Below the pieces are notes generated by a model. The model ran no database searches. It saw only the letters and a list, made by a program, of their open reading frames with translations, and had not been told where the DNA came from. From Yuukianura sp. NJ FZ-2021 (lineage: Eukaryota), in NCBI GenBank assembly GCA_046563655.1, contig CM102289.1:558001-622000 (forward strand): 64,000 nt of DNA, given 5' to 3'. The first letter of the stretch is position 1. Each line of letters opens with the position of its first letter. Position numbers and translations under genes: made by a program. This document shows, piece by piece, positions 6,055-48,104 of this stretch.

Positions 6055-9000
6055 CTATTGCCTTACTCCACGCTGCGTTAACTCAATTGAATTTGATCTG
6101 CGTATTCTTCTAGAAGTAAATTTAGTTGTCATCCATGTTCCAACTTCTCGCAGTAGAAGTTTCAATTCTGTGCGAAACTTGTTGCCGAGGAGGCAGTAGA
6201 GGATGAAATTGACGGCAGAATTGACAATTATGGGGAGACAGACAATTGTGGCTGCCACTTCAGGCTCCACTCCCTTCAGAATAAAGTTGAGTTCCAGTGC
6301 AGCAGCCAAGGAGTTAAGAAGGATGAACACAAACACAACTGAAAGCAACATTCTAGTCAGAGAAGAGTCATGCGCAGTATCATGTGTGGTTGCCATAAGG
6401 CGCTGCGCTCTTGTTGCTTTGGTTACCTATTTAACACAAAAGAACTCATAATACTTTCCTTAACATTTTGTTTTGTATTACAACAGTTATTTTAAATTTA
6501 CCGCTCGAATGATAAGTATGTTGATTGTGACGATGGTAACAAATGGAACCAAGTAGATGAATAAATACCAGAGCAGTTGCTGGTAAATGATTTGGTACAG
6601 TGGAAATCTGTGCAATTGACGCGGGAAGGTTCTGCTCCACTCGGGGGAAGATGCTTCGTAGTTCCATTTCACAAATTCAAACCACCGCGGTAGGTTTAAA
6701 AATGTTGCAAATCCAAATACCAGCAGTGTATAACGCCGTGCTTTTTGTATTGTAAAAATTGACGACACTTGCAGTGGCTTCGAAACTGCAACAAAGCGTT
6801 CCACCGTGACCAGGACAGTCATATACACCGACGCTGTGTACACTACAAGCAGATAACAAAAAACTACAAGTAGAAAAAACAAATGTTATAACTATAAGAT
6901 ATTAACTCATATGAACAATAACAATATATGAATATTTCAACCTTGTCATAAAAATTCGGCCAAAAATTAAATTCAATGTTTACTTGTTTTGTTGGTGGGG
7001 TATGCCACGTATCCATTCAAATTTGAGCGCCGGAATTTTTCCCGAAACAAATTAGCGAATTCCTCCGACGTGACAAAGGTCGTAATCATGTACATGGAGT
7101 CGCAACATGTGAGTCCAAAAAGAAGTGTGCTTGTTGAGCTACGCATTGTGTTGCGCGTGAGCACGACAAAGCTCAAGCAGTTGCAAAGAAGTCCAATACC
7201 ACAAATGCTGTAAATAAAGGTCATGTAGGTGTTGTAAATTTGTGACAACAGCCTTGAAGTTATTTCCTCTTCCGAGAATCCATGTAATTTTAAGTAACTT
7301 CCAATTCTATACTCTCTTTTGAGCCAATCTGAAGGAAAATTGCCTCCAAACCGGTGACCGTATTCCCCGTTCAAAGTAAACCATAGTAAACCTGCTCCTT
7401 GCAAAGTGTCATCGGGAAATGTTGCATTTAAAATGGTTTTTATGACAGTTTTAACTTGAGCCTTGGCCATTTCTCCAGGATCATACACAGGCTTTCTGAT
7501 AAAGATCAACTTGGCTCGTTGTTTTGCAAATTCCAGAAGCACCCTTTGAGACAATACATCCTCCATATCCATAGTAACTTGATGTAGATAAGGAAAGGTA
7601 GCGTCCATGCTGTCTAAAATTATGCCGTCAATTGTACACCCCATGAATGACAGAATTCTCACATTTGACAACGGCCGAACTGGTAACCTTTTGACTCTAA
7701 CTTTCACAAACTGTAAAGTTAGCACTTGCAACCACTGCCCTGGGAATGACCCCAAAACAACTTCAGGACACTCTTCGTCCAAATACTGACAGTTGATGAC
7801 CAAATCTTTCAATTCATGGCTTTCCAAAATATCATCTAATTTAGTATTCCACAAATACGAATTCTGTTTGTGAAGAGATGTAAATTCTTTGGTTAAATTG
7901 AAAAGGCTAAGGTCAATGTCACCAAAGGTCACGCTAATCAAGCGTAGTTTTGTGAATTGTTGTCGCAATTGGGGAGGAGCCGAGTTGTAGCGGAAACTCA
8001 ACGACTCAGTTCTAATTTCGACGAGTGATTTGGCGGGAAGAAGTGCAACGTCAATTGCTTCGTGAAATTTGCCACGAATCCATAGGATTTCAAGGACAAC
8101 GGCAGACTTTAAAAGTTGTGATATGGTACCGCCGATGATGTTATTGTAGTACAAGTGCAACTCTTTGATAATGGTCAGGTTCAATGACCTCAGATCGATT
8201 GTGCAGTACCTTGCCCAGAATATTTTAACCTTTGTGATCATGCTGTAAAACAGTTTCCAATTGACGTCATCTGTAATGTACTCTACTTCCAACTTTGAGT
8301 TGGTTATTCCGAAGGATCCGTCTTGTTCAGCGAAGCAATAAATTTTAAAGGTCAAGGTCTGAAGAACTGAATGTACTCCGCTTCCTGCGGTTGCTTTTGT
8401 ATGAAAGAAGATGACCGACTCTAACGCCGCGCTGACAACCCAAACATGGCTCGTATTATCAATTTGATTAAATTCAAAAGTTTTTAAATTGGGGAGGTAA
8501 ATCTTTTCAAAATTCGTTTCAATTTCATACTCCCACTCTACATTCCACAAATTCAAAGTTGTCAATTTGGAACAATTGGTTAAAAAATTTACGAGCGTGA
8601 ATCTCCTCACGCGCACAAATTTCAATTCCACTTCTGTTAGGGCACAATGTCCATCGACTGTTAACCTCTCTGAGGCCCCTTGGCTACGCAAATTTAAATG
8701 CCCGCCTGACACCTTTTCATCAGATTGTCCATGGTTGCCTGTTATGTCCATACCTAACATAACTCCCCTCCTACGAGAAGTGGCGAGGGTGGCCTGCAGA
8801 ACCTACCCTCGGGGCTGACACGAAGTCATCAAAGTGGTCCCGCCAGAATGTCTCAACGGGGCCAAAACGCGTTTTTAAATTTTGAAAACAATAGGCGTAA
8901 TAATTAAAAATAACTCATTTAATTAAATTTTTTGACCCCGTTTTAAACAGTTTGAATTAAGCTCTCCTAAAATTAGGCATATTTGACTTTATTGTGACCT

Positions 9001-9321
9001 ATTGCTTTATGGAGCAAAAGTCAAATTTGATGTAAAATCATCAAAGTGGTATCAGAAAAGTTAACATTTTCTCAACTCCCTCGAAATTCTCCAGAAAAGT
9101 AGCGTTTCCTTCCATTATTAGCTTAGTTTTCTTCAAAAATATAAAAAACTATAGTTATACATGATATTCTATTTTAGTTTATAAATAATTAAACGTCCTA
9201 TATTTATTTATATAAATATTTAAAATCGCGCTATAAGTCATAATGTACTTACAGTTACATGACATTCGCCCTTCGCCTCTGAAGCTACCACAAATACCCA
9301 AAAAATAATCAAGAAATTCAT
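6055..9321 (-). CDS. Signal peptide + LRR-like ectodomain + FMRFamide-receptor-like rhodopsin GPCR, copy 1 (exon 2 interrupted by a TTAA insertion; may be a pseudogene)
   Basis: Exons 9321-9253 (MNFLIIFWVFVVASEAKG), 9130-6984, 6842-6502, 6427-6055; YTASVYMTVLVTVERFVAV (TM3), NSAVNFILY (TM7); LxxLxL-type repeats; paralog at 45149-48104. Confidence 0.75.
8665..9060. mobile_element. TTAA-specific (piggyBac-like) non-autonomous insertion in GPCR exon 2
   Basis: TTAA at 8661-8664 and 9061-9064; degenerate TIR cctctctgaggcccctt / aagtggtatcagaaaag. Removal restores FEGVEKM-LTVDGHCALTE, matching the paralog's FHGVEKI-STVDGQCALTE. Confidence 0.8.
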
Positions 9322-15125: not shown

Positions 15126-18100
15126 ATGGCCGAGGCTCAACCGGAAGAACCCAGGGCTTACGTTGTATTTCTATTTGGGTGGAAACTGTTCCCTTTACAA
15201 GGTCAATTTTATATTAAATATTAATAATAAATATAATAATAATAATTAATAAGTGCTTAATAACTTATTGCTGATTTCGATGCGGGCCAGAGTTATCAGC
15301 TACCTTAGCTCCTAAAGGGGTACCAAAGAAATTTTTGCACATTGGGGTTGGAGTTTACAACAGAATTTATGAGTTCAATCAAACTGGATTTCATAGCAGT
15401 CAAAATATGGTTAGTTCTGCATTTTAAAATAATTTATATACCAAAAATAATTATTGAAAATATATAAATTTGCTATTGTAAATGTAAAAATATATTTGGA
15501 CGAACCATTCAATAAGTTTTTAGCTTTCATTTTACTTACTATTTGTATTTATTTTTTTAAATAATATTTATAGCCTGAAAAATTTGAAATTTTTTCAAAA
15601 TCTAATGAAAACGAAGACATAAAATACTTCTTGACAACACAGAAGCAAATCGACTTGGATAAATGGTTAAATGAACAAAAACAATTTAAGTAAAGTTAAT
15701 TTTTTTTTACTAAAATTTAACTTTTATTCACTAAAACAACAAATTTTAGCTATCATTCATCTTTGTTTAAATTTAGAGCTAATTCCTACAACCTGGAAAC
15801 CAACAACTGCCTATGTTTTGCCGCCGCAGTGTGTCACTTTCTTGGCGTTCCATTTGAAGGTGAACATGAAAAACTGAAACAATGGTTGGCTCAAAGGTAT
15901 TTTTTAAATTTAAAGTTTAAAGTCAGTTGAAAGTTAAGAAAAATAATTGTTTTTAGCACAATCATAACAACTGCCTACAAAAAACTGCAAAAGCATCCCA
16001 CTTGGGCAAGGTTTTTGGGATCTTCGCTGATTTCTTCGAGAGCTGCCGGAAGTCAAACTTCCGTGGAAGTTTACGAAACAATCATGAAAGAAGTTAGTGT
16101 GCAAAATGCAATGGAGGCACAGTATAGTATGGTGGCCCCAGAGTGCCAATGCTGTTTTTCTCATTTTGTAATTCAAAAAGCATTTTCAAATGCATTTTCA
16201 ATTGTATTTCGTTTTCAAAAGCATTTTCAATTGCATTTCGTTTTCAAAAGCATTTTCAATTGCATTTCGTTTTCAAAAGCATTTTCATTTGCATTTCGTT
16301 TTCAAAAGCATTTTCATTTGCATTTCGTTTTCAAAAGCATTTTCATTTGCATTTCAATTTCAAAAGCATTTTCAATTGCATTTCAATTTCAAAAGCATTT
16401 TCAATTGCATTTCAATTTCAATTTGAAAATGAAAATGCACTTGGCCCTTCTGGGCTCCTAATTCAAATTCAATTTGAAAATGAAAATGCATTTGGCCCTT
16501 CTGGGCTCCTTATTCAAAAAGTGCGCGCTTTCATGTCAGGTGACTTTGTTATATGCGAAAGTGGAAAAGTCCTGAGTTCCTATACACATCACTGGTGCCA
16601 ACTCACAAATGGGCAAAAATAAATCTCAAATTGACGGATATTTTTTATTTTCATTTACTTTTGGTTAATTAATTATTTATTAATTACTAATTATTTGTGT
16701 AGATTATTTTGCTAAAAAACTACACATCCTTTACGTTATACCAGCTGATCAGTAACTTGGCCGGCTCGCAAACTCTGCTTGATGGAGTAAACGATGTATA
16801 TGGTGTTGATTTTACCAATTTATTAGTATCTTTGCCAATTTAATTATTTTAATCTAATTAAACAGAACTTAGAAAACTTAACCTATGTGTTTCTGTTGAA
16901 TGTTTGACTGCAGTCTTATGCCACACATACTTATGGGGAAGCAGAAAAGAAAGAATAATCGATGGCCAAGAGCTAGACGCTATCGTCGCGCTCCCTATCA
17001 CCACCCACTACTTACGAATCCGACTTGTCGGAAAGCTAGAAATTATATGAGATACTTTTAACACTTTAATTGATAAACTCCTAAAGTCTCATCAAAATCT
17101 GAGCTTTCGTTTTCTTACAAACTAACAAAATGTAATTGACAAAAATAACAGTCCGTTATCATACAATAACTTTACGCTCCCATCCTGCAAAACCGAAAGG
17201 TCAGATTTTGATGAGACTTTGAAGGGGTATTGTTTATTGTGTTTAGAATCTTCGCAAAAATTTCTAGATTCGCCATAAATGGAGTTCGATTGTAGTGGAT
17301 GATAGGGAGCACGAAGACAGCTTCTGACCTTAGGCTTTTCTTTGTTTATCTCTGTTCTCCGATTTTTGTCAGGAACCCCATCTGTGGCGAAGCTAGAAAT
17401 TTCTGCGAAGATTCTAAACACAATAAACAATACCCCTTCAAAGTCTCATCAAAATCTGACCTTTCGGTTTTGCAGGATGTGAGCATAAAGTTATTGTATG
17501 ATAACGGACTGTTCTTTTTGTCAATTACATTTTGTTAGTTTGTAAGAAAACGAAAGCTCAGATTTTGATGAGACTTTAGGAGTTTATCAATTAAAGTGTT
17601 AAAAGTATCTCATATAATTTCTAGCTTTCCGACAAGTCGGATTCGTAAGTAGTGGGTGGTGATAGGGAGCGCGACGATAGCGTCTAGCTCTTGGCCATCG
17701 ATTATTCTTTCTTTTCTGCTTCCCCATAAGTATGTGTGGCATAAGACTGCAGTCAAACATTCAACAGAAACACATAGGTTAAGTTTTCTAAGTTCTGTTT
17801 AATTAGATTAAAATAATTAAATTGGCAAAGATACTAATAAATTGGTAAAATCAACACCATATACATCGTTTACTCCATCAAGCAGAGTTTGCGAGCCGGC
17901 CAAGTTACTGATCAGCTGGTATAACGTAAAGGATGTGTAGTTTTTTAGCAAAATAATCTACACAAATAATTAGTAATTAATAAATAATTAATTAACCAAA
18001 AGTAAATGAAAATAAAAAATATCCGTCAATTTGAGATTTATTTTTGCCCATTTGTGAGTTGGCACCAGTGATGTGTATAGGAACTCAGGACTTTTCCACT

Positions 18101-18660
18101 TTCGCATATAACAAAGTCACCTGACATGAAAGCGCGCACTTTTGAATAAGGAGCCCAGAAGGGCCAAATGCATTTTCATTTTCAAATTGAATTTGAATTA
18201 GGAGCCCAGAAGGGCCAAGTGCATTTTCATTTTCAAATTGAAATTGAAATGCAATTGAAAATGCTTTTGAAATTGAAATGCAATTGAAAATGCTTTTGAA
18301 ATTGAAATGCAATTGAAAATGCTTTTGAAATTGAAATGCAAATGAAAATGCTTTTGAAAACGAATTGCAAATGAAATTGCTTTTGAAAACGAAATGCAAA
18401 TGAAAATGCTTTTGAAAACGAAATGCAATTGAAAATGCATTTGAAAATGCTTTTGAAAACGAAATGCAATTGAAAATGCATTTGAAAATGCTTTTGAAAA
18501 CGAAATACAATTGAAAATGCATTTGAAAATGCTTTTTGAATTACAAAATGAGAAAAACAGCATTGGCACTCTGGGGCCACCATAGTATAGAATATCCAGT
18601 AGTGGAGCCAGGTACAGAGTTGAAGATGCTTCTGTCGATCCTGACAATGAAGAGTCGTAA
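15126..18660 (+). CDS. PPPDE/DeSI-like putative deubiquitinase/deSUMOylase, copy 2; last exon split by a 2.46-kb foldback insertion
   Basis: Exons 15126-15201, 15291-15409, 15574-15689, 15777-15896, 15957-16127 + 18591-18660; catalytic-dyad-like motifs FLHIGVGVYNRIYEF and YNLETNNCLCFAAAVCHFLGV, typical of permuted papain-fold C97 peptidases. Confidence 0.7.
16128..18584. mobile_element. Large foldback (FB-like) palindromic element, ~1.15-1.2-kb arms, ~85-bp loop
   Basis: TIR tatggtggccccagag / ctctggggccaccata; 6-bp TSD gtatag (16122-16127, 18585-18590); the empty site is seen in the paralog near 5092; subterminal 29-bp tandem repeats. Confidence 0.9.
16173..16430 (+). repeat. 29-bp tandem repeat (ttgcatttcgttttcaaaagcattttcaa) in the left foldback arm; mirrored at ~18235-18540
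   Basis: Directly visible period of 29; the right-arm copy has extra 12-bp units. Confidence 0.85.
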
Positions 18661-18712: not shown

Positions 18713-20979
18713 TTATGACGTAGAACTTTGGAATTTGTCGATTTCCAGCTTCAACTTCTCCTTAATTTGTGGCACTGAAATTCGGTTTTTGGGATTGTAT
18801 TTCAATGTTTTCTTCACGATTTGGCAAATTTCTGGATATTTGTTTTCGTCCAATGGTTCTGAAATTTGGTTTAATATAAAAGAAAAATTAAATTCATTTT
18901 ATTTGTTTTAATTATAAAAATGAAATTATACAGTAAGTCGTTTTTGCTTACTAAACTCCCAAGGAGACTGTTTTCTAACCAACAAAACCTCTTTGATTTC
19001 CTAAATTACAAAGATTGCATCAACTTACATAAATTACATCAATGTCATTAATTAATGTATGTTTAGTGATTGTAATTCTTGTTACCTCGACTGATGGATG
19101 TTCATTCGTTGCTGAGTAAGGAACAAAAGTGTCATCTGACCAAATTTGGTACAAAACAACACCGTAAGCCCAAACATCAGATTTAAAGTCATAGATTCCT
19201 GATGGCTTTATCACAATTTCCTTCTGTGATGATTTTGGCTCATCTTCATCAGATTCTGCAACGTCATCGCTCGGTGGCTGGCCAAATTGCGTCCAGTCAA
19301 AGTTACGCGGAAGCATAGGCCGAGCTGTAATAGGTTTTTAAAAGTAAATAAAAAGTGAACAACATCATTACATCAATTCAATAACATCAAAAAACACTTC
19401 TCTCTTTTTTTTTTGCAAAATTGAAAAAACATGAGGTATTACCCAACCTGTTAAAGAAAATCAAAGTCAACAAACCTTGATTTACACAAACTAGAAATTA
19501 ATAGTTAAAAATTTAAAACTAAACTAAATTTTTAAAACCATGCAAACGTTTAGCGTCATATGAAGCGTAGTTTTTGTTTTACCTTCTGGTACAATTTTGA
19601 ACCAAGGAAACACTTCTGGTGCACAGTATTGAAGGGAATACGCTGTCCGTCGTTCATCACCTTCGCCTAGCTACAAACCCATTTTAATAGGTGTAATTTT
19701 TGTAGTTATTATTTGAAATTAAATTGGTTATTATAATAATTATACTTATTTAAATATTAATTACAAACTTACAATGATTACACCTCCACCTTGAAGAAAC
19801 GAAGTAAGGCCAAAGTCACAGAGCTTTGGTTCATAATCTTCCATGAGAAGAACATTCCTTGCAGTCAAGTCTCTGTGAACACATTGGTGAAAATGAATGT
19901 AATTGAGCCCACAAATAATTCCGTAACTGATTTTTAACTTTGTTTCTTCAGTCTGTCAAACAATCAACAATAACATTAATTAAATTTAATTAATTTATAA
20001 TTAAATTATCTACGAAGGTTTGTTGATTTACTTATCTTTAACACCTTACGTAATACCTCATGTTTTTTTCAAAATTTATGAAAAAAAAAGTTGCATTTCA
20101 GGGTATCGTAACTATGACATTATTATCAATGATTTTTAAATATTTTGCCCACGAAATTGGTATCGAAAAATTTTATTTTTGGAATTGGCACCAATGGTAC
20201 TCAGTTTTTTGTTATTTTGATTGGGGTATTACGCAACCTGCTAAACAAAACTGGATGGTTGTCATGGAACCTTGATTAATTAAGTTATAAAAATAATAAT
20301 AAACTTAATTATATGTTAAATTTACCCAGTATTCAGGAAGGCATTCCTCATCTTGTTGATGTTTATAAACCAGTTCCAGAGTGCGGTATAAACTTCCGTT
20401 TTGTGCAAATTCGAGCACAATCCATGGCAAATCAGTTTCATTTGTAGCGAAAGAAACCATGCGAATTATATTGGGATGCGAAATAAGTTGCATAATTGCT
20501 CCCTCGATGATTGTAGTCCCAATGCCTTCAATTAGTCTTCCTCTTCGTTTTGTTGGTATCTTAATTGCGACAGGAAGTCCAGTTTCAGATTTCCCTAGTT
20601 CAATTAAATCATAACACAATAAATTATAATATAATAATTAAAAAAATGCTTTGAAATGCACATATAACATGAATTTTCGTGTTTAACATTTGGAAATCTT
20701 GATATCATTTTTTGAATACTAAACAATGTTACCTTTAAACACTTTTCCAAAATTCCCGCCTCCAATTTGCTTTTCAATTTTAAACCTGGTTGAATCATAG
20801 GAGCGAATTATTCCGCCCAATTTTAAATTCCTGGGAAGTTTGAAACTTGGACTGGACATTTTCCCATCTGGTCCAACAATGTCCAGTTGCAAATGCGGTT
20901 GGGGCAATCCAACGGCTCCACCAAAGTCAAATGTTCTTATAGAAACTTGGTGGTCACAAACTGTCATTGAGTCACTCAT
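18713..20979 (-). CDS. Non-receptor tyrosine-kinase-like protein kinase (7 exons, kinase domain only)
   Basis: IGGGNFGKVFKG, VAIK, HPNII, HRDLTARNVLL, KLCDFG, YCAPE, KSDVWAYGV motifs. Exons about 20979-20733, ~20605-20326, 19953-19773, 19670-19582, 19325-19086, 19001-18951, 18860-18713. Confidence 0.88.
20014..20274. mobile_element. CAAGG-family MITE in a kinase intron
   Basis: Similar to 3862-4103 (aaggtttgttga...taatacctcatg...caacctgctaa...ggaaccttg). Confidence 0.65.
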
Positions 20980-27312: not shown

Positions 27313-35139
<7,827 letters not shown>

Positions 35140-45148: not shown

Positions 45149-48104
45149 TTACCTTGCCCTACGATTGGTTAACTCAATCGTATTTGATCTGTCTATTGTT
45201 GTACGACTACATTTGGTTAAAATCCACGCACCAACCTCTTTTAGTAGAAGTTTCAATTCTTTTCGAAATTTGGTGCCAAGAATGGAGTAGAGGATGAAAT
45301 TGAGAGCAGAGTTGAGTAGTATGGGGAGAGAGACAATTGTTGCGGTAACTTCAGGCTCCACTCCCTTCAGAATAAAGTTGAGTTCCAGTGCAGCAGCCAA
45401 GGAGTTAAGCAGGATGAACACAAACACAACTGAAAGCAACATTCGAGTCAGGGAAGAGTCAGAAGCAGTACTGTGGGTGGTTGCAGTAAGGCGCCGCTCT
45501 CTCGCTGCTTTGGTTACCTGAAACATAACATAAACAATTCATTTTGCAACTTAGTTTTGTGTTTTTTATGCATTTGGTTTTAAATTTACCGCTCGAATGA
45601 TGAGTATGTTGAGTGTGACGATTGTAAAAAAGGGAACCAAGTAGATGCATAGATACCAGAGCAGTTGCTGGTAAATGATTTGGTAGAATGGAAATCTGTG
45701 CAACTGACACGGGAAATAATTGCTCCACTCGGGAGACGATGCTTCATAGCTCCATTTTGCAAACTCCAACCATCGCGGAAAATTTAGAAATGTTGAAAAT
45801 CCAAATGCCAGCAGTGTGTAACGTCGTGCTTTGCGAATTGTAAAAACCGATGACACTTGCAGTGGCTTCGAAATTGCAACATAACGCTCCAAAGTAACCA
45901 AAACCGTCATGTAGACCGACGCTGTGTACACTAGAACGGAAGTAAATTCTCATGCATTACACATCCACGTACATATAGGACGTACACCCGCATACAAACA
46001 CATATTCAATCCAAAATTTTAAATTTAATAAAATAAATAACTTTTTACATCAAATTTAAGTCTTATGCTTACTTGTCTTGCTGATTGGATAAGCCACGTA
46101 TCCGTTCCATTTCGAGCGCAGCATTTTTTCATGAAACAAGTTACTGAATTCCTCCGCCGTGACAAATGACGTAATCAAGTACATGGAATCGCAGCATGTG
46201 AGCCCCACAAGAAGTATGCTTGTTGAACTGCGCATTGCTTTGCGCATGAGCACGACGAAGCTCAAGCAGTTGAAAAGTAGTCCAATACCACAAATACAGT
46301 TAACAAATGTCATGTACGAGTTGTAAATTTGTGACAAGAGCGTTGAAGTTATTTCCTCTTCCGAGAATCCATGTAATTTCAAATGACGTGTAATCCTGTA
46401 CTCTTTTCTGACCCAGGGGTAATAAGCGTGGTCCAGAAGACGGTAACCAACTGTGCGATTTATTGTAAACATACGTGCCTGCTCTCCTTCAAAAGTGTTT
46501 TCGGGAAATGTTGCATTTAAAGTTGTTTTGATGAGCGCTTTAAATTGACTTTTGACTTTGAATCCAGGGTCATACATTGGCATTTTGATAGTCACAAACG
46601 TTGGAGCTAGTTGATTTACAAATGCCAAGAGCAGCCTTTGCGACAAAACATCCTCCATATTCATCATAACTCTCTCTACACGTGGAAAGATACTGCCAAT
46701 GTTGTCTAAAATTGCGTCATCAATTGTGCAGCTCATGAATGCTAAGTGTGTTATGTTTGACAACGGCGGCACTGGTAACATTTCGAATCTAACGTAAACA
46801 AACTGCAACACTAAGCTTTCTATTGTCCTTAATCCAAGTGACCCCAGGTCAACTGCAGGACACTCTTCACCCAAATACTGACAGTTGATGACCAAACGTT
46901 CCAATTCATGATTTTCCAAAATATCAACTAGTTTAGTATTCCACAAATACGAATTGTGTAGTTCAAGTCGTCGAAATTCTTTGGATAAATTGAAAACGCT
47001 AAGGTCAATGTCGCCAAACATCACAAGAATCTCCTGCAGTTTGGTGAACTGTTGTCGCAAGTGAGAAGGAGCCGAGTTGTAGCGGAAACTCAGCGATCCT
47101 GTACTAATTTCAACGAGTGAATTGGTTGGAAGATGTGCGACGTCAATTGCTTCAGGAACTTTGCTATGAATTACTATATGTGTAAGGGCAATAGAGGACG
47201 TTATAAGTTGTGATATGGTACCACCGATGAGGTCATTATCATACAAGGTCAAGCTTGTGACCGAGGTCAAGTTCACTGACTTCACATCAATTGTGCAGTC
47301 GCTCGCGCCGAATCCTTTAACGTTGATGAACGTGGTGAACAACATTCTCCAAATGGCGACATCTCTGATGCGTTTAACTTTTAAATCAGAACCCCTTATG
47401 CTAATATAAGCTCCATCACCAGAATTTATGAGAACATCTAAATTTTGGAACTTCGGAATTCCTCCGCTCCCTATTGTTCCATTTGTAAGAAAACTAATAA
47501 TGGATTCCAGGATTTCCCTGGTGTTCAAAACATAGGGCGGATAGTAAGATTGATCAAAGTGAATTTCGTTTAGACTTGGAAGATGAATTTTGCCCAAATT
47601 CGTTTCATGTTCCCAGACCCATTCTACATTGCTGAACTTCAAACTTGCCAAACAGGGAAAATTGGTTAAGAATTTAGCAAATATGGAGCTTCTCACGCGC
47701 AACAATTTTAATTCCAGTTCTGTTAGTGCACACTGTCCATCGACAGTAGAAATTTTTTCTACTCCATGGAAGTCCTGCAGCAATGTTTCGTTTCCAGTGA
47801 CTGTGATTTTGGTCCTATAAAAAGAATTGCAGAACATGTATTATATGTATTGTTCAACTACATATTGTATTTACCTGTGTATAAATAATTACATACCATT
47901 TATTTTTACATTAACATCTCTTATATTAACATTTTAAATTCCCGCTTAGCCAGAGGTTTAATGGTGCGAACAATGTCGCTTCCGTCTTTACATAGCCAAA
48001 AAAGCATTTTTAAATTACCCATATCTACTTCGGGTTTGGATATACGTTTCAGCCTTGGCTTCAGACGTAAATAAGAACACTAGAAAACTTAGTAACAAAT
48101 GCAT
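45149..48104 (-). CDS. Signal peptide + LRR-like ectodomain + FMRFamide-receptor-like GPCR, copy 2 (apparently intact)
   Basis: Exons 48104-48019 (MHLLLSFLVFLFTSEAKA), 47814-46073, 45930-45590, 45517-45149, all phase-compatible; YTASVYMTVLVTLERYVAI and NSALNFILY motifs. Confidence 0.85.

Follow-up and report, generated by a model that had tools for sequence, protein, structure and literature searches.

The 64,000-nucleotide stretch analysed here (positions 558,001 to 622,000 of contig CM102289.1, assembly GCA_046563655.1, Yuukianura sp. NJ FZ-2021; the whole of it is called the window below) contains on its minus strand a four-exon gene, gene B, which is predicted to encode a receptor of the G-protein-coupled type (GPCR) that has a leucine-rich repeat (LRR) ectodomain. 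Gene B probably codes for a receptor at the cell surface, one of a multi-copy and lineage-restricted family whose seven-transmembrane (7TM) domain, of the FMRFamide-receptor/Srw type, has gained a signal peptide together with an extracellular LRR solenoid and would work like the LRR-containing GPCRs (LGRs). The LGRs are class A GPCRs with leucine-rich repeats and comprise the FSH/LH/TSH receptors, LGR4-6 and the relaxin receptors RXFP1/2. To our knowledge, they have so far been the sole class A receptors with LRR ectodomains. The gene B family is probably a convergent LRR-GPCR, which comes from a different 7TM clade and uses a different kind of LRR than the LGRs, and it appears to be undescribed.

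Gene B runs from the ATG at 48104 to the last base of the stop codon at 45149. A preliminary description of this DNA had given 45149..48104 for the gene, and the two ends are exact. The exons (48104-48019, 47814-46073, 45930-45590 and 45517-45149; their contents are listed in Table 1) are separated by introns that all have GT..AG ends, and they provide a coding sequence of 2538 nt for a product of 845 residues. Three long open frames lie head to tail on the minus strand between 47840 and 45149 and can be joined by canonical splice sites. Exon 1 carries a short hydrophobic leader with a small-x-small site, where A-K-A precedes the likely cleavage site, as read from the sequence. This leader exon, together with the equivalent short exons upstream of a second window gene (paralog A) and of a gene on the metagenome contig L001, agrees with the signal peptide that had been claimed. 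Exon 2 (1.74 kb; its translation is P0001) consists of 580 whole codons, so that the ectodomain passes into the first two transmembrane helices (TM1 and TM2) without interruption, as had also been stated, and every peptide quoted in the preliminary description was found in the gene B translation. The N-terminal ~530 residues contain 7 N-x-S/T sequons and only 6 cysteines. TM1, TM2, TM5, TM6 and TM7 were located by hydropathy, and TM3 and TM4 by the match to Pfam 7tm_1. Between the solenoid and TM1 stands the block L-K-L-H-G-F-S-E-E-E-I-T, which is present in paralogs A and B, conserved across the family and recognisable in L001. For the Pfam, structure and database searches described below, single exons of gene B were used as queries in place of the spliced full-length protein.

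The 7TM domain was assigned by several comparisons. For the TM1-2 part, the best Pfam match was 7TM_GPCR_Srw (PF10324), with 22.8 bits for gene B (6.5e-05) and 24.7 bits for paralog A against a cut-off of 22.2. This is a borderline match, limited to positions 4-53 of the model's 319; it is short because the gene is split by introns and single exons were scanned. Exon 3 matched Pfam 7tm_1 with 39.2 bits (E 7.1e-10; cut-off 30.5), and exon 4 alone gave no Pfam match. When the family profile of exon 3 was compared with the PDB, neurotensin receptor 1 was the best match (3.1e-07), followed by the neuromedin U, vasopressin and ghrelin receptors. The family profile of exon 4 matched class A receptors as well (best 1.8e-05), including the melatonin, TRH, opioid, somatostatin and orexin receptors. 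No LGR chain was found among the best 60 of the 123 PDB matches of the exon 3 profile, nor among the best 60 of the 287 matches of the exon 4 profile. Krishnan et al. (2014, PMC3963977) report PF10324-like receptors only from protostomes and place them nearest to the peptide and somatostatin/opioid groups. The PDB matches of exons 3 and 4 agree with that placement of Srw, which points to a protostome as the likely source of the window.

When longer proteins were searched by a word index with the exon 3 profile, 10 relatives were found. PF10324 is present in 8 of them, and the remaining two (P0015 and P0012, the latter a fragment) have PF10328/PF10323 or 7tm_1 only. Among the 10 are one gastropod protein named "FMRFamide receptor-like" and two mirid-bug GPCRs. 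The 7TM domain of spliced gene B could be aligned to the relatives from TM1 to TM7 at 67-115 bits. About 34-146 residues precede TM1 in the 8 full-length relatives, in line with the earlier statement that such receptors usually have short N-termini, versus 532 residues in gene B. The asparagine of TM1, the aspartate of TM2, the E-R-Y/F motif of TM3 and the proline of TM5 are present and invariant in the family, and both the CWxP motif of TM6 (neither the proline nor the tryptophan is there) and the proline of NPxxY in TM7 are absent. The lack of the usual TM6 proline, which the preliminary description had singled out, was therefore seen again, but it is a trait of the whole clade and not a peculiarity of gene B: a TM6 without Pro or Trp at CWxP, combined with N-S-x-x-N-F-x-x-Y in TM7, was found in all 7 alignable FMRFamide-receptor-like relatives. 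Because the relatives have them in common, these departures in TM6 and TM7 are a shared derived character that ties the 7TM domain to the FMRFamide-receptor/Srw clade. By these sequence criteria, the gene B 7TM domain is classed as class A of the FMRFamide-receptor/Srw type, and the FMRFamide-receptor type proposed earlier is supported by the Srw match and the 8 of 10 nearest relatives with PF10324. From the clade assignment and the shared derived motifs we infer an origin independent of the LGRs.

For the gene B ectodomain, the predicted fold is an LRR solenoid. The family ectodomain profile (A3), made from 7 family sequences or pieces, was compared with all PDB sequences and gave 11 matches at E<=10, and all 11 were LRR proteins. 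TIR1 was the best (0.0029) and an LRR receptor kinase came next (0.004); the remaining matches were an NLR, four ANP32A entries, an LRRcap-domain protein, BAK1, a Toll/VLR chimera and SERK2. When the profile was compared with itself, off-diagonal scores of 85.2 (residues 113-368 on 6-273) and 77.0 (157-273 on 251-368) were obtained, and the maximum of 30 column-shuffled controls was 18.9. Because the scores are far above those of the shuffles, the ectodomain is considered to be built of super-repeats of ~95-105 residues.

The structures of two family ectodomains were predicted with AlphaFold2 (AF2), a check for a solenoid that the preliminary description had named. The mean predicted local distance difference test score (pLDDT) and the predicted template-modelling score (pTM) were 76.2 and 0.76 for gene B, and 80.5 and 0.77 for L001. 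Both models show short strands every 19-27 residues in most repeats, with about 17 repeats in total up to about residue 460; in the predicted solenoid of gene B the repeats are 19-41 residues long. The gene B model had 73 Foldseek matches in the PDB at E<=0.001, and among the matches listed all were LRR proteins. Realignment of this model with VIA-align over Foldseek's top 1000 put FBXL17 first (Z 15.2, 283 residues aligned, root mean square deviation (rmsd) 4.0). In a search of 48,161 chains that did not rely on Foldseek, the L001 model matched FBXL2 best (Z 16.8), followed by SDS22 and Roco (16.0 for both). In each of these two comparisons, 50 of the 50 rows listed were LRR proteins, and so both modelled members matched only LRR solenoids in the rows listed.

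The best sub-threshold Pfam LRR matches in the family were LRR_4 for L001 (24.3 bits) and LRR_At5g56370 for paralog A (20.8 bits), with further matches to LRR_At5g56370 (15.6 bits) and LRR_At1g61320_AtMIF1 (14.1 bits), all against a cut-off of 27. Such sub-threshold LRR families appeared in 3 of the 6 non-B ectodomain pieces that were scanned individually, and the paralog A ectodomain also gave a chance-level match to Pfam RVT_2 (0.093). The gene B ectodomain itself has no Pfam domain, and no LRR family even below the threshold. The named neighbours in the ESM Atlas were F-box-type LRR clusters, with feature scores of only 0.81-0.86, which serve as leads only. A phmmer search of the big exon against the PDB returned only 5 weak matches (E 0.36-0.42), all on the TM1-2 part. 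Pfam detected no cysteine-rich cap family of the LRRNT or LRRCT type at E<=1 in the 7 ectodomain sequences, and the two family-invariant cysteines of the ectodomain are six residues apart within one repeat.

The same architecture occurs in other genes. In the window, paralog A follows the same four-exon plan and its big exon is 57% identical to that of gene B, as the mention of a second paralog had led us to expect; nucleotide similarity between A and B is limited to the coding part (74.8% over 2.6 kb). A HMMER search with the ectodomain against 1.84 billion representative proteins gave only 4 matches (E 4.3e-49, 6.9e-35, 3.7e-19 and 4.1e-04). These 4 have no functional name (one cluster member is labelled "hypothetical protein"), three of them come from JGI metagenome contigs, and no ectodomain relative from an annotated proteome was found among the 1.84 billion proteins. 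Word-indexed searches with the big exon and with a five-member alignment found nothing, which has little weight since only 8000 candidates were scored. The three metagenome contigs are L001, L002 and L003. L001 carries the complete plan, with a signal-peptide exon, an exon for the ectodomain and TM1-2, a TM3-5 exon and a TM6-7 exon; its introns lie at the same positions as in the window genes, and the phase of the one that follows TM2 also agrees. L003 lacks its 5' end, but the three exons that remain are its last three and have the same arrangement. Gene B, paralog A, L001 and L003 thus share the positions of the introns behind TM2 and TM5, and a signal-peptide exon was found in all 3 genes with upstream DNA to inspect. 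The recurrence of the architecture therefore extends from the two window genes to two metagenome genes. Since the same plan is present in genes that are only ~30% identical, the fusion must be old enough to be shared by them.

The fourth protein, P0006 (456 residues, from a 1665-bp contig), matched the ectodomain only (residues 27-388, E 4.1e-04). No transmembrane part was seen in it, and it had no Pfam match at E<=0.1. P0006 may be a soluble or separately encoded solenoid, or a gene cut by the small contig.

Copy number was assessed from DNA sequencing runs. In run X1, 751 contigs matched the 3.1 kb of gene B, with 117 at >=99% identity, 134 at 95-99%, 291 at 90-95% and 209 below 90%, and up to 31 contigs had the same alternative base at one place. 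This spread is what many diverged copies would give, and the contig numbers are not equal to a gene count. In run X4, from a second organism, 113 contigs were found, and in one of them exons 3 and 2 are linked by a different intron, 89 nt long.

Between paralogs A and B, the ratio of nonsynonymous to synonymous substitution rates (dN/dS) was 0.54 in the ectodomain and half as high, 0.27, in the 7TM domain. Ectodomain sites were then divided into classes according to the strands of the AF2 model. The hydrophobic strand positions were the most conserved (A-B identity 0.77, dN/dS 0.18). The non-hydrophobic strand positions, which form the predicted concave face, were the least conserved, with an identity of 0.31 at 94 sites and a dN/dS of 0.77, versus 0.53 at 191 sites and 0.60 for the other non-hydrophobic positions (Fisher p = 6e-4 for the difference in identity). 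In this model-based classification, the predicted binding face is the part that diverges fastest. With dN/dS below 1 in every part, both halves of the gene B protein are under constraint.

The gene B family was compared with known receptors and LRR proteins. With the LGRs it shares a signal peptide, a large N-terminal LRR solenoid, a juxtamembrane segment and a rhodopsin-type 7TM domain, and the gene B model can be superposed on LGR4 (Z 13.5, 352 residues aligned, rmsd 4.8), TSHR and FSHR (Z 12.6 each). By analogy, the mode of action is likely to be the same. In contrast to the LGRs, gene B has a 7TM domain of the FMRFamide-receptor/Srw clade, its ectodomain has no detectable sequence similarity to LGR ectodomains, no Pfam LRRNT or LRRCT cap is reported for it, its cysteines are few, and its best fold matches are F-box-type, SDS22 and Roco LRRs. 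With the FMRFamide-receptor/Srw (PF10324) proteins it has in common the 7TM sequence from TM1 to TM7, the E-R-F/Y motif in TM3, the changed TM6 and TM7 motifs, and the peptide and somatostatin/opioid groups as nearest solved receptors; the difference lies in the N-terminus, which is about 530 residues long in the gene B family.

The F-box-type (FBXL2, FBXL17, TIR1), SDS22 and Roco LRRs are the best fold matches of the family (Z 15-16.8). TIR1 is also the best PDB profile match, and F-box-type families appear among the sub-threshold Pfam matches and the ESM neighbours. These LRRs are cytoplasmic or nuclear, whereas that of gene B follows a signal peptide, carries sequons and would stand outside the cell on a GPCR. 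The likeness is at the level of the fold only and does not imply homology. Adhesion GPCRs of the ADGRA2/3 type have an LRR ectodomain, a class B2 7TM domain and a GAIN/GPS domain. They resemble gene B in having an LRR-bearing ectodomain on a seven-helix receptor (compare Table 1 of PMC12716839), but the gene B 7TM domain matches 7tm_1 and Srw, and no GPS domain was found in the Pfam scan.

A 2025 survey names LRR and LDLa in its Table 1 as the extra domains of rhodopsin-family GPCRs (PMC12716839). Among the results listed by full-text literature searches, which did not extend to subscription journals, no receptor of the FMRFamide-receptor/Srw type was described as having an LRR ectodomain. The LRR and LDLa entries of the survey table are presumably LGR architectures. 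The accessible part of PMC11589774 makes no mention of leucine, or of an N-terminal or extracellular domain.

By analogy with the LGRs, the concave face of the solenoid would bind a macromolecular ligand, which could be a protein, a peptide or a surface molecule. The conserved juxtamembrane segment would relay the resulting change to the helix bundle, possibly as a tethered agonist or inverse agonist, and the bundle would signal to G proteins via its E-R-Y/F region. The family may form a receptor repertoire with differing ligand specificities, because the concave face diverges fast and the copies are many.

A number of observations speak against this reading. The splicing of gene B was read from the DNA sequence alone. 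The ligand, the G-protein coupling and the tethered-agonist idea are purely conjectural, and in the AF2 model of gene B the pLDDT falls below 50 from residue 459 on. The last ~35 residues before TM1 are below 50 as well, so that confidence in the modelled juxtamembrane segment is low. The concave face, with its dN/dS of less than 1, does not demonstrate positive selection. The main alternative is that a small FMRFamide-like peptide still activates the receptor in the pocket of the bundle and the LRR domain is not a ligand sensor, serving instead for cell-cell adhesion, localisation, co-receptor contacts or auto-inhibition. The end-to-end alignment of the 7TM domain with FMRFamide-receptor-like proteins, with the motifs kept, and the stronger constraint on the 7TM domain than on the ectodomain are both in its favour. 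However, the concave face is the usual binding surface of LRR proteins and belongs to the least conserved class of sites, and its low conservation is easier to reconcile with a shifting ligand specificity than with a constant structural function. The juxtamembrane block, moreover, is conserved family-wide. We therefore regard activation through the bundle pocket as unlikely, although it deserves serious attention, and prefer ligand recognition by the solenoid.

The nature of the ectodomain was weighed in the same way. It might be another beta-alpha repeat solenoid that AF2 forced into an LRR shape from a shallow alignment. The alignment behind both models is the same and has only 7 rows, no Pfam LRR model reached its gathering score in any of the 7 family ectodomain sequences, the ESM Atlas scores are low, and the Foldseek TM-scores of the gene B model are only 0.25-0.43, although low values are expected between solenoids that differ in curvature. 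Simple motif counts did not help either. The preliminary description had based the repeats on LxxLxL-like units, and the peptides quoted for them are present, but such units are not more frequent than in shuffled sequences: gene B has 34 LxxLxL patterns versus 31.8 expected (329 of 1000 shuffles were as high), and 6 of a fuller LRR pattern versus 2.9 expected (54 of 1000 shuffles reached 6). A periodicity of ~24 residues was not significant by Fourier analysis of single sequences, nor in the family hydrophobicity profile, where 820 to 995 of 1000 shuffles were as good. The lone exception was the LxxLxL count of paralog A (46 versus 30.3, 0 of 1000 shuffles). Because counts and periodicity were within the range of the shuffles, motif counting was dropped as evidence, and the repeat nature of the ectodomain was borne out by two results only, the profile self-comparison and the predicted fold. 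Against a lookalike solenoid stand three AF2-independent lines that point to an LRR (the PDB profile matches, the sub-threshold Pfam families and the ESM neighbours) and the strand spacing of most repeats in both models, which make it very improbable. It is just as hard to believe that gene B is merely what is left of a gene family in decay, without function or expression. The big exon of paralog A is split by a 400-bp insertion (9064-8665), and L002 (3072-5120) has an in-frame stop in the ectodomain, between 3569 and 3570, and a deletion in its TM3-4 exon that removes the E-R-F region, so that L002 looks like a pseudogene and some family members are therefore decaying. Gene B, on the other hand, has an intact frame of 845 codons in four exons with canonical splice sites and keeps all class A landmark residues common to its clade, and the dN/dS values stay below 1 throughout. 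The preferred reading thus remains that of an LRR-bearing receptor that works like an LGR.

The positions of the features are collected in Table 1. Without its insertion, paralog A has a frame that is open for 842 codons. The inserted 400 bp are single copy within the window. Each end shows TTAA, in fact six identical bases, and the terminal inverted repeats are imperfect, features that would suit a miniature element of the piggyBac type. Read in one register, the insertion begins with GT and ends with AG, and could therefore be removed exactly as an intron, like an introner.

Gene B is surrounded by a tandem array whose units measure ~900 bp. Within this array, 14 small exons are intact, 12 of them in minus and 2 in plus orientation, and encode an 8-Cys domain with the pattern C-P-x-I/V-D-x-S ... 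CC ... C ... C. The cysteine spacing is WAP-like, yet the Pfam WAP match is below the threshold (0.029, 15.1 bits versus 20.8), and the exons look like parts of secreted-peptide-like genes. Beyond the array, an intron-less open frame of 959 codons has a hydrophobic N-terminus, several hydrophobic segments and an acidic Ser/Glu-rich region of 36-nt repeats; Pfam assigned it to no family at E<=0.01, and no sequence in the PDB matched it at E<=1. The window also contains exons for the alpha-1 subunit of a voltage-gated calcium channel; they match Pfam Ion_trans, have L-type Cav1.2 and Cav1.3 as the best PDB matches (8.7e-76) and identify the window as animal DNA. Tandem repeats of 29, 41 and 51 nt form two arrays, inverted and ~1.6 kb apart, which produce long spurious open frames. 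An exon-sized open frame matches Pkinase (4.1e-08, 33.4 bits versus 31.7). The Rfam scan of the window found nothing.

Table 1. Positions in the window of gene B and its parts, of paralog A and of surrounding features.
Feature	Position	Strand	Content and basis
Gene B exon 1	48019..48104	minus	Start codon and predicted signal peptide, GT donor; read from sequence
Gene B exon 2, first part	46434..47814	minus	Predicted LRR-type solenoid ectodomain, P0001 residues 1 to ~460
Gene B exon 2, juxtamembrane ("hinge") segment	46302..46433	minus	Between solenoid and TM1; alignments
Gene B exon 2, last part	46073..46301	minus	TM1, intracellular loop 1, TM2, start of first extracellular loop
Gene B exon 3	45590..45930	minus	TM3 (E-R-Y), TM4, TM5 (conserved Pro); Pfam 7tm_1
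Gene B exon 4	45149..45517	minus	TM6, TM7 (N-S-x-x-N-F-x-x-Y), C-terminal tail, stop codon; alignment
Paralog A	9321..6055	minus	Four exons as in gene B: 9321-9253, 9130-6984, 6842-6502, 6426-6055
Insertion in paralog A	8665-9064		400 bp, piggyBac-like ends
Tandem array around gene B	39520-61292	both	~900-bp units with 8-Cys exons
Open frame of 959 codons	35298-38174	minus	Intron-less
Calcium channel exons	30115-33566	plus	Alpha-1 subunit; Pfam Ion_trans
Tandem-repeat arrays	16183-16518 and 18141-18564		Inverted pair
Exon-sized open frame	20305-20637	minus	Pkinase match

A wider reading can be put forward tentatively, and we consider it possible but doubtful. In this reading, a protostome lineage would have invented LRR-GPCRs independently, by joining an F-box/SDS22-like solenoid to an FMRFamide-receptor-type 7TM domain, and expanded them to dozens of copies with diversifying concave faces as a system for macromolecule recognition. 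Its role would be chemosensory, allorecognition or immune, with a logic comparable to that of TLRs, VLRs and plant LRR receptors. Gating may be by the conserved juxtamembrane tethered peptide, and the WAP-like peptides encoded around gene B may be some of the ligands.

If the fusion is truly a second and independent one, on a different 7TM clade, it would offer a natural experiment in the coupling of a solenoid ectodomain to a rhodopsin-type helix bundle, and would be relevant to the question whether such coupling is generally achieved through a tethered juxtamembrane segment. The family is invisible to annotation, as its ectodomain has no Pfam domain and no relative from annotated proteomes was found among the 1.84 billion representative proteins. 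Its apparent multi-copy state and its fast-evolving predicted binding face therefore make the family a candidate: it may be a sensory or recognition repertoire that has gone unrecognised in a little-studied lineage of invertebrates.

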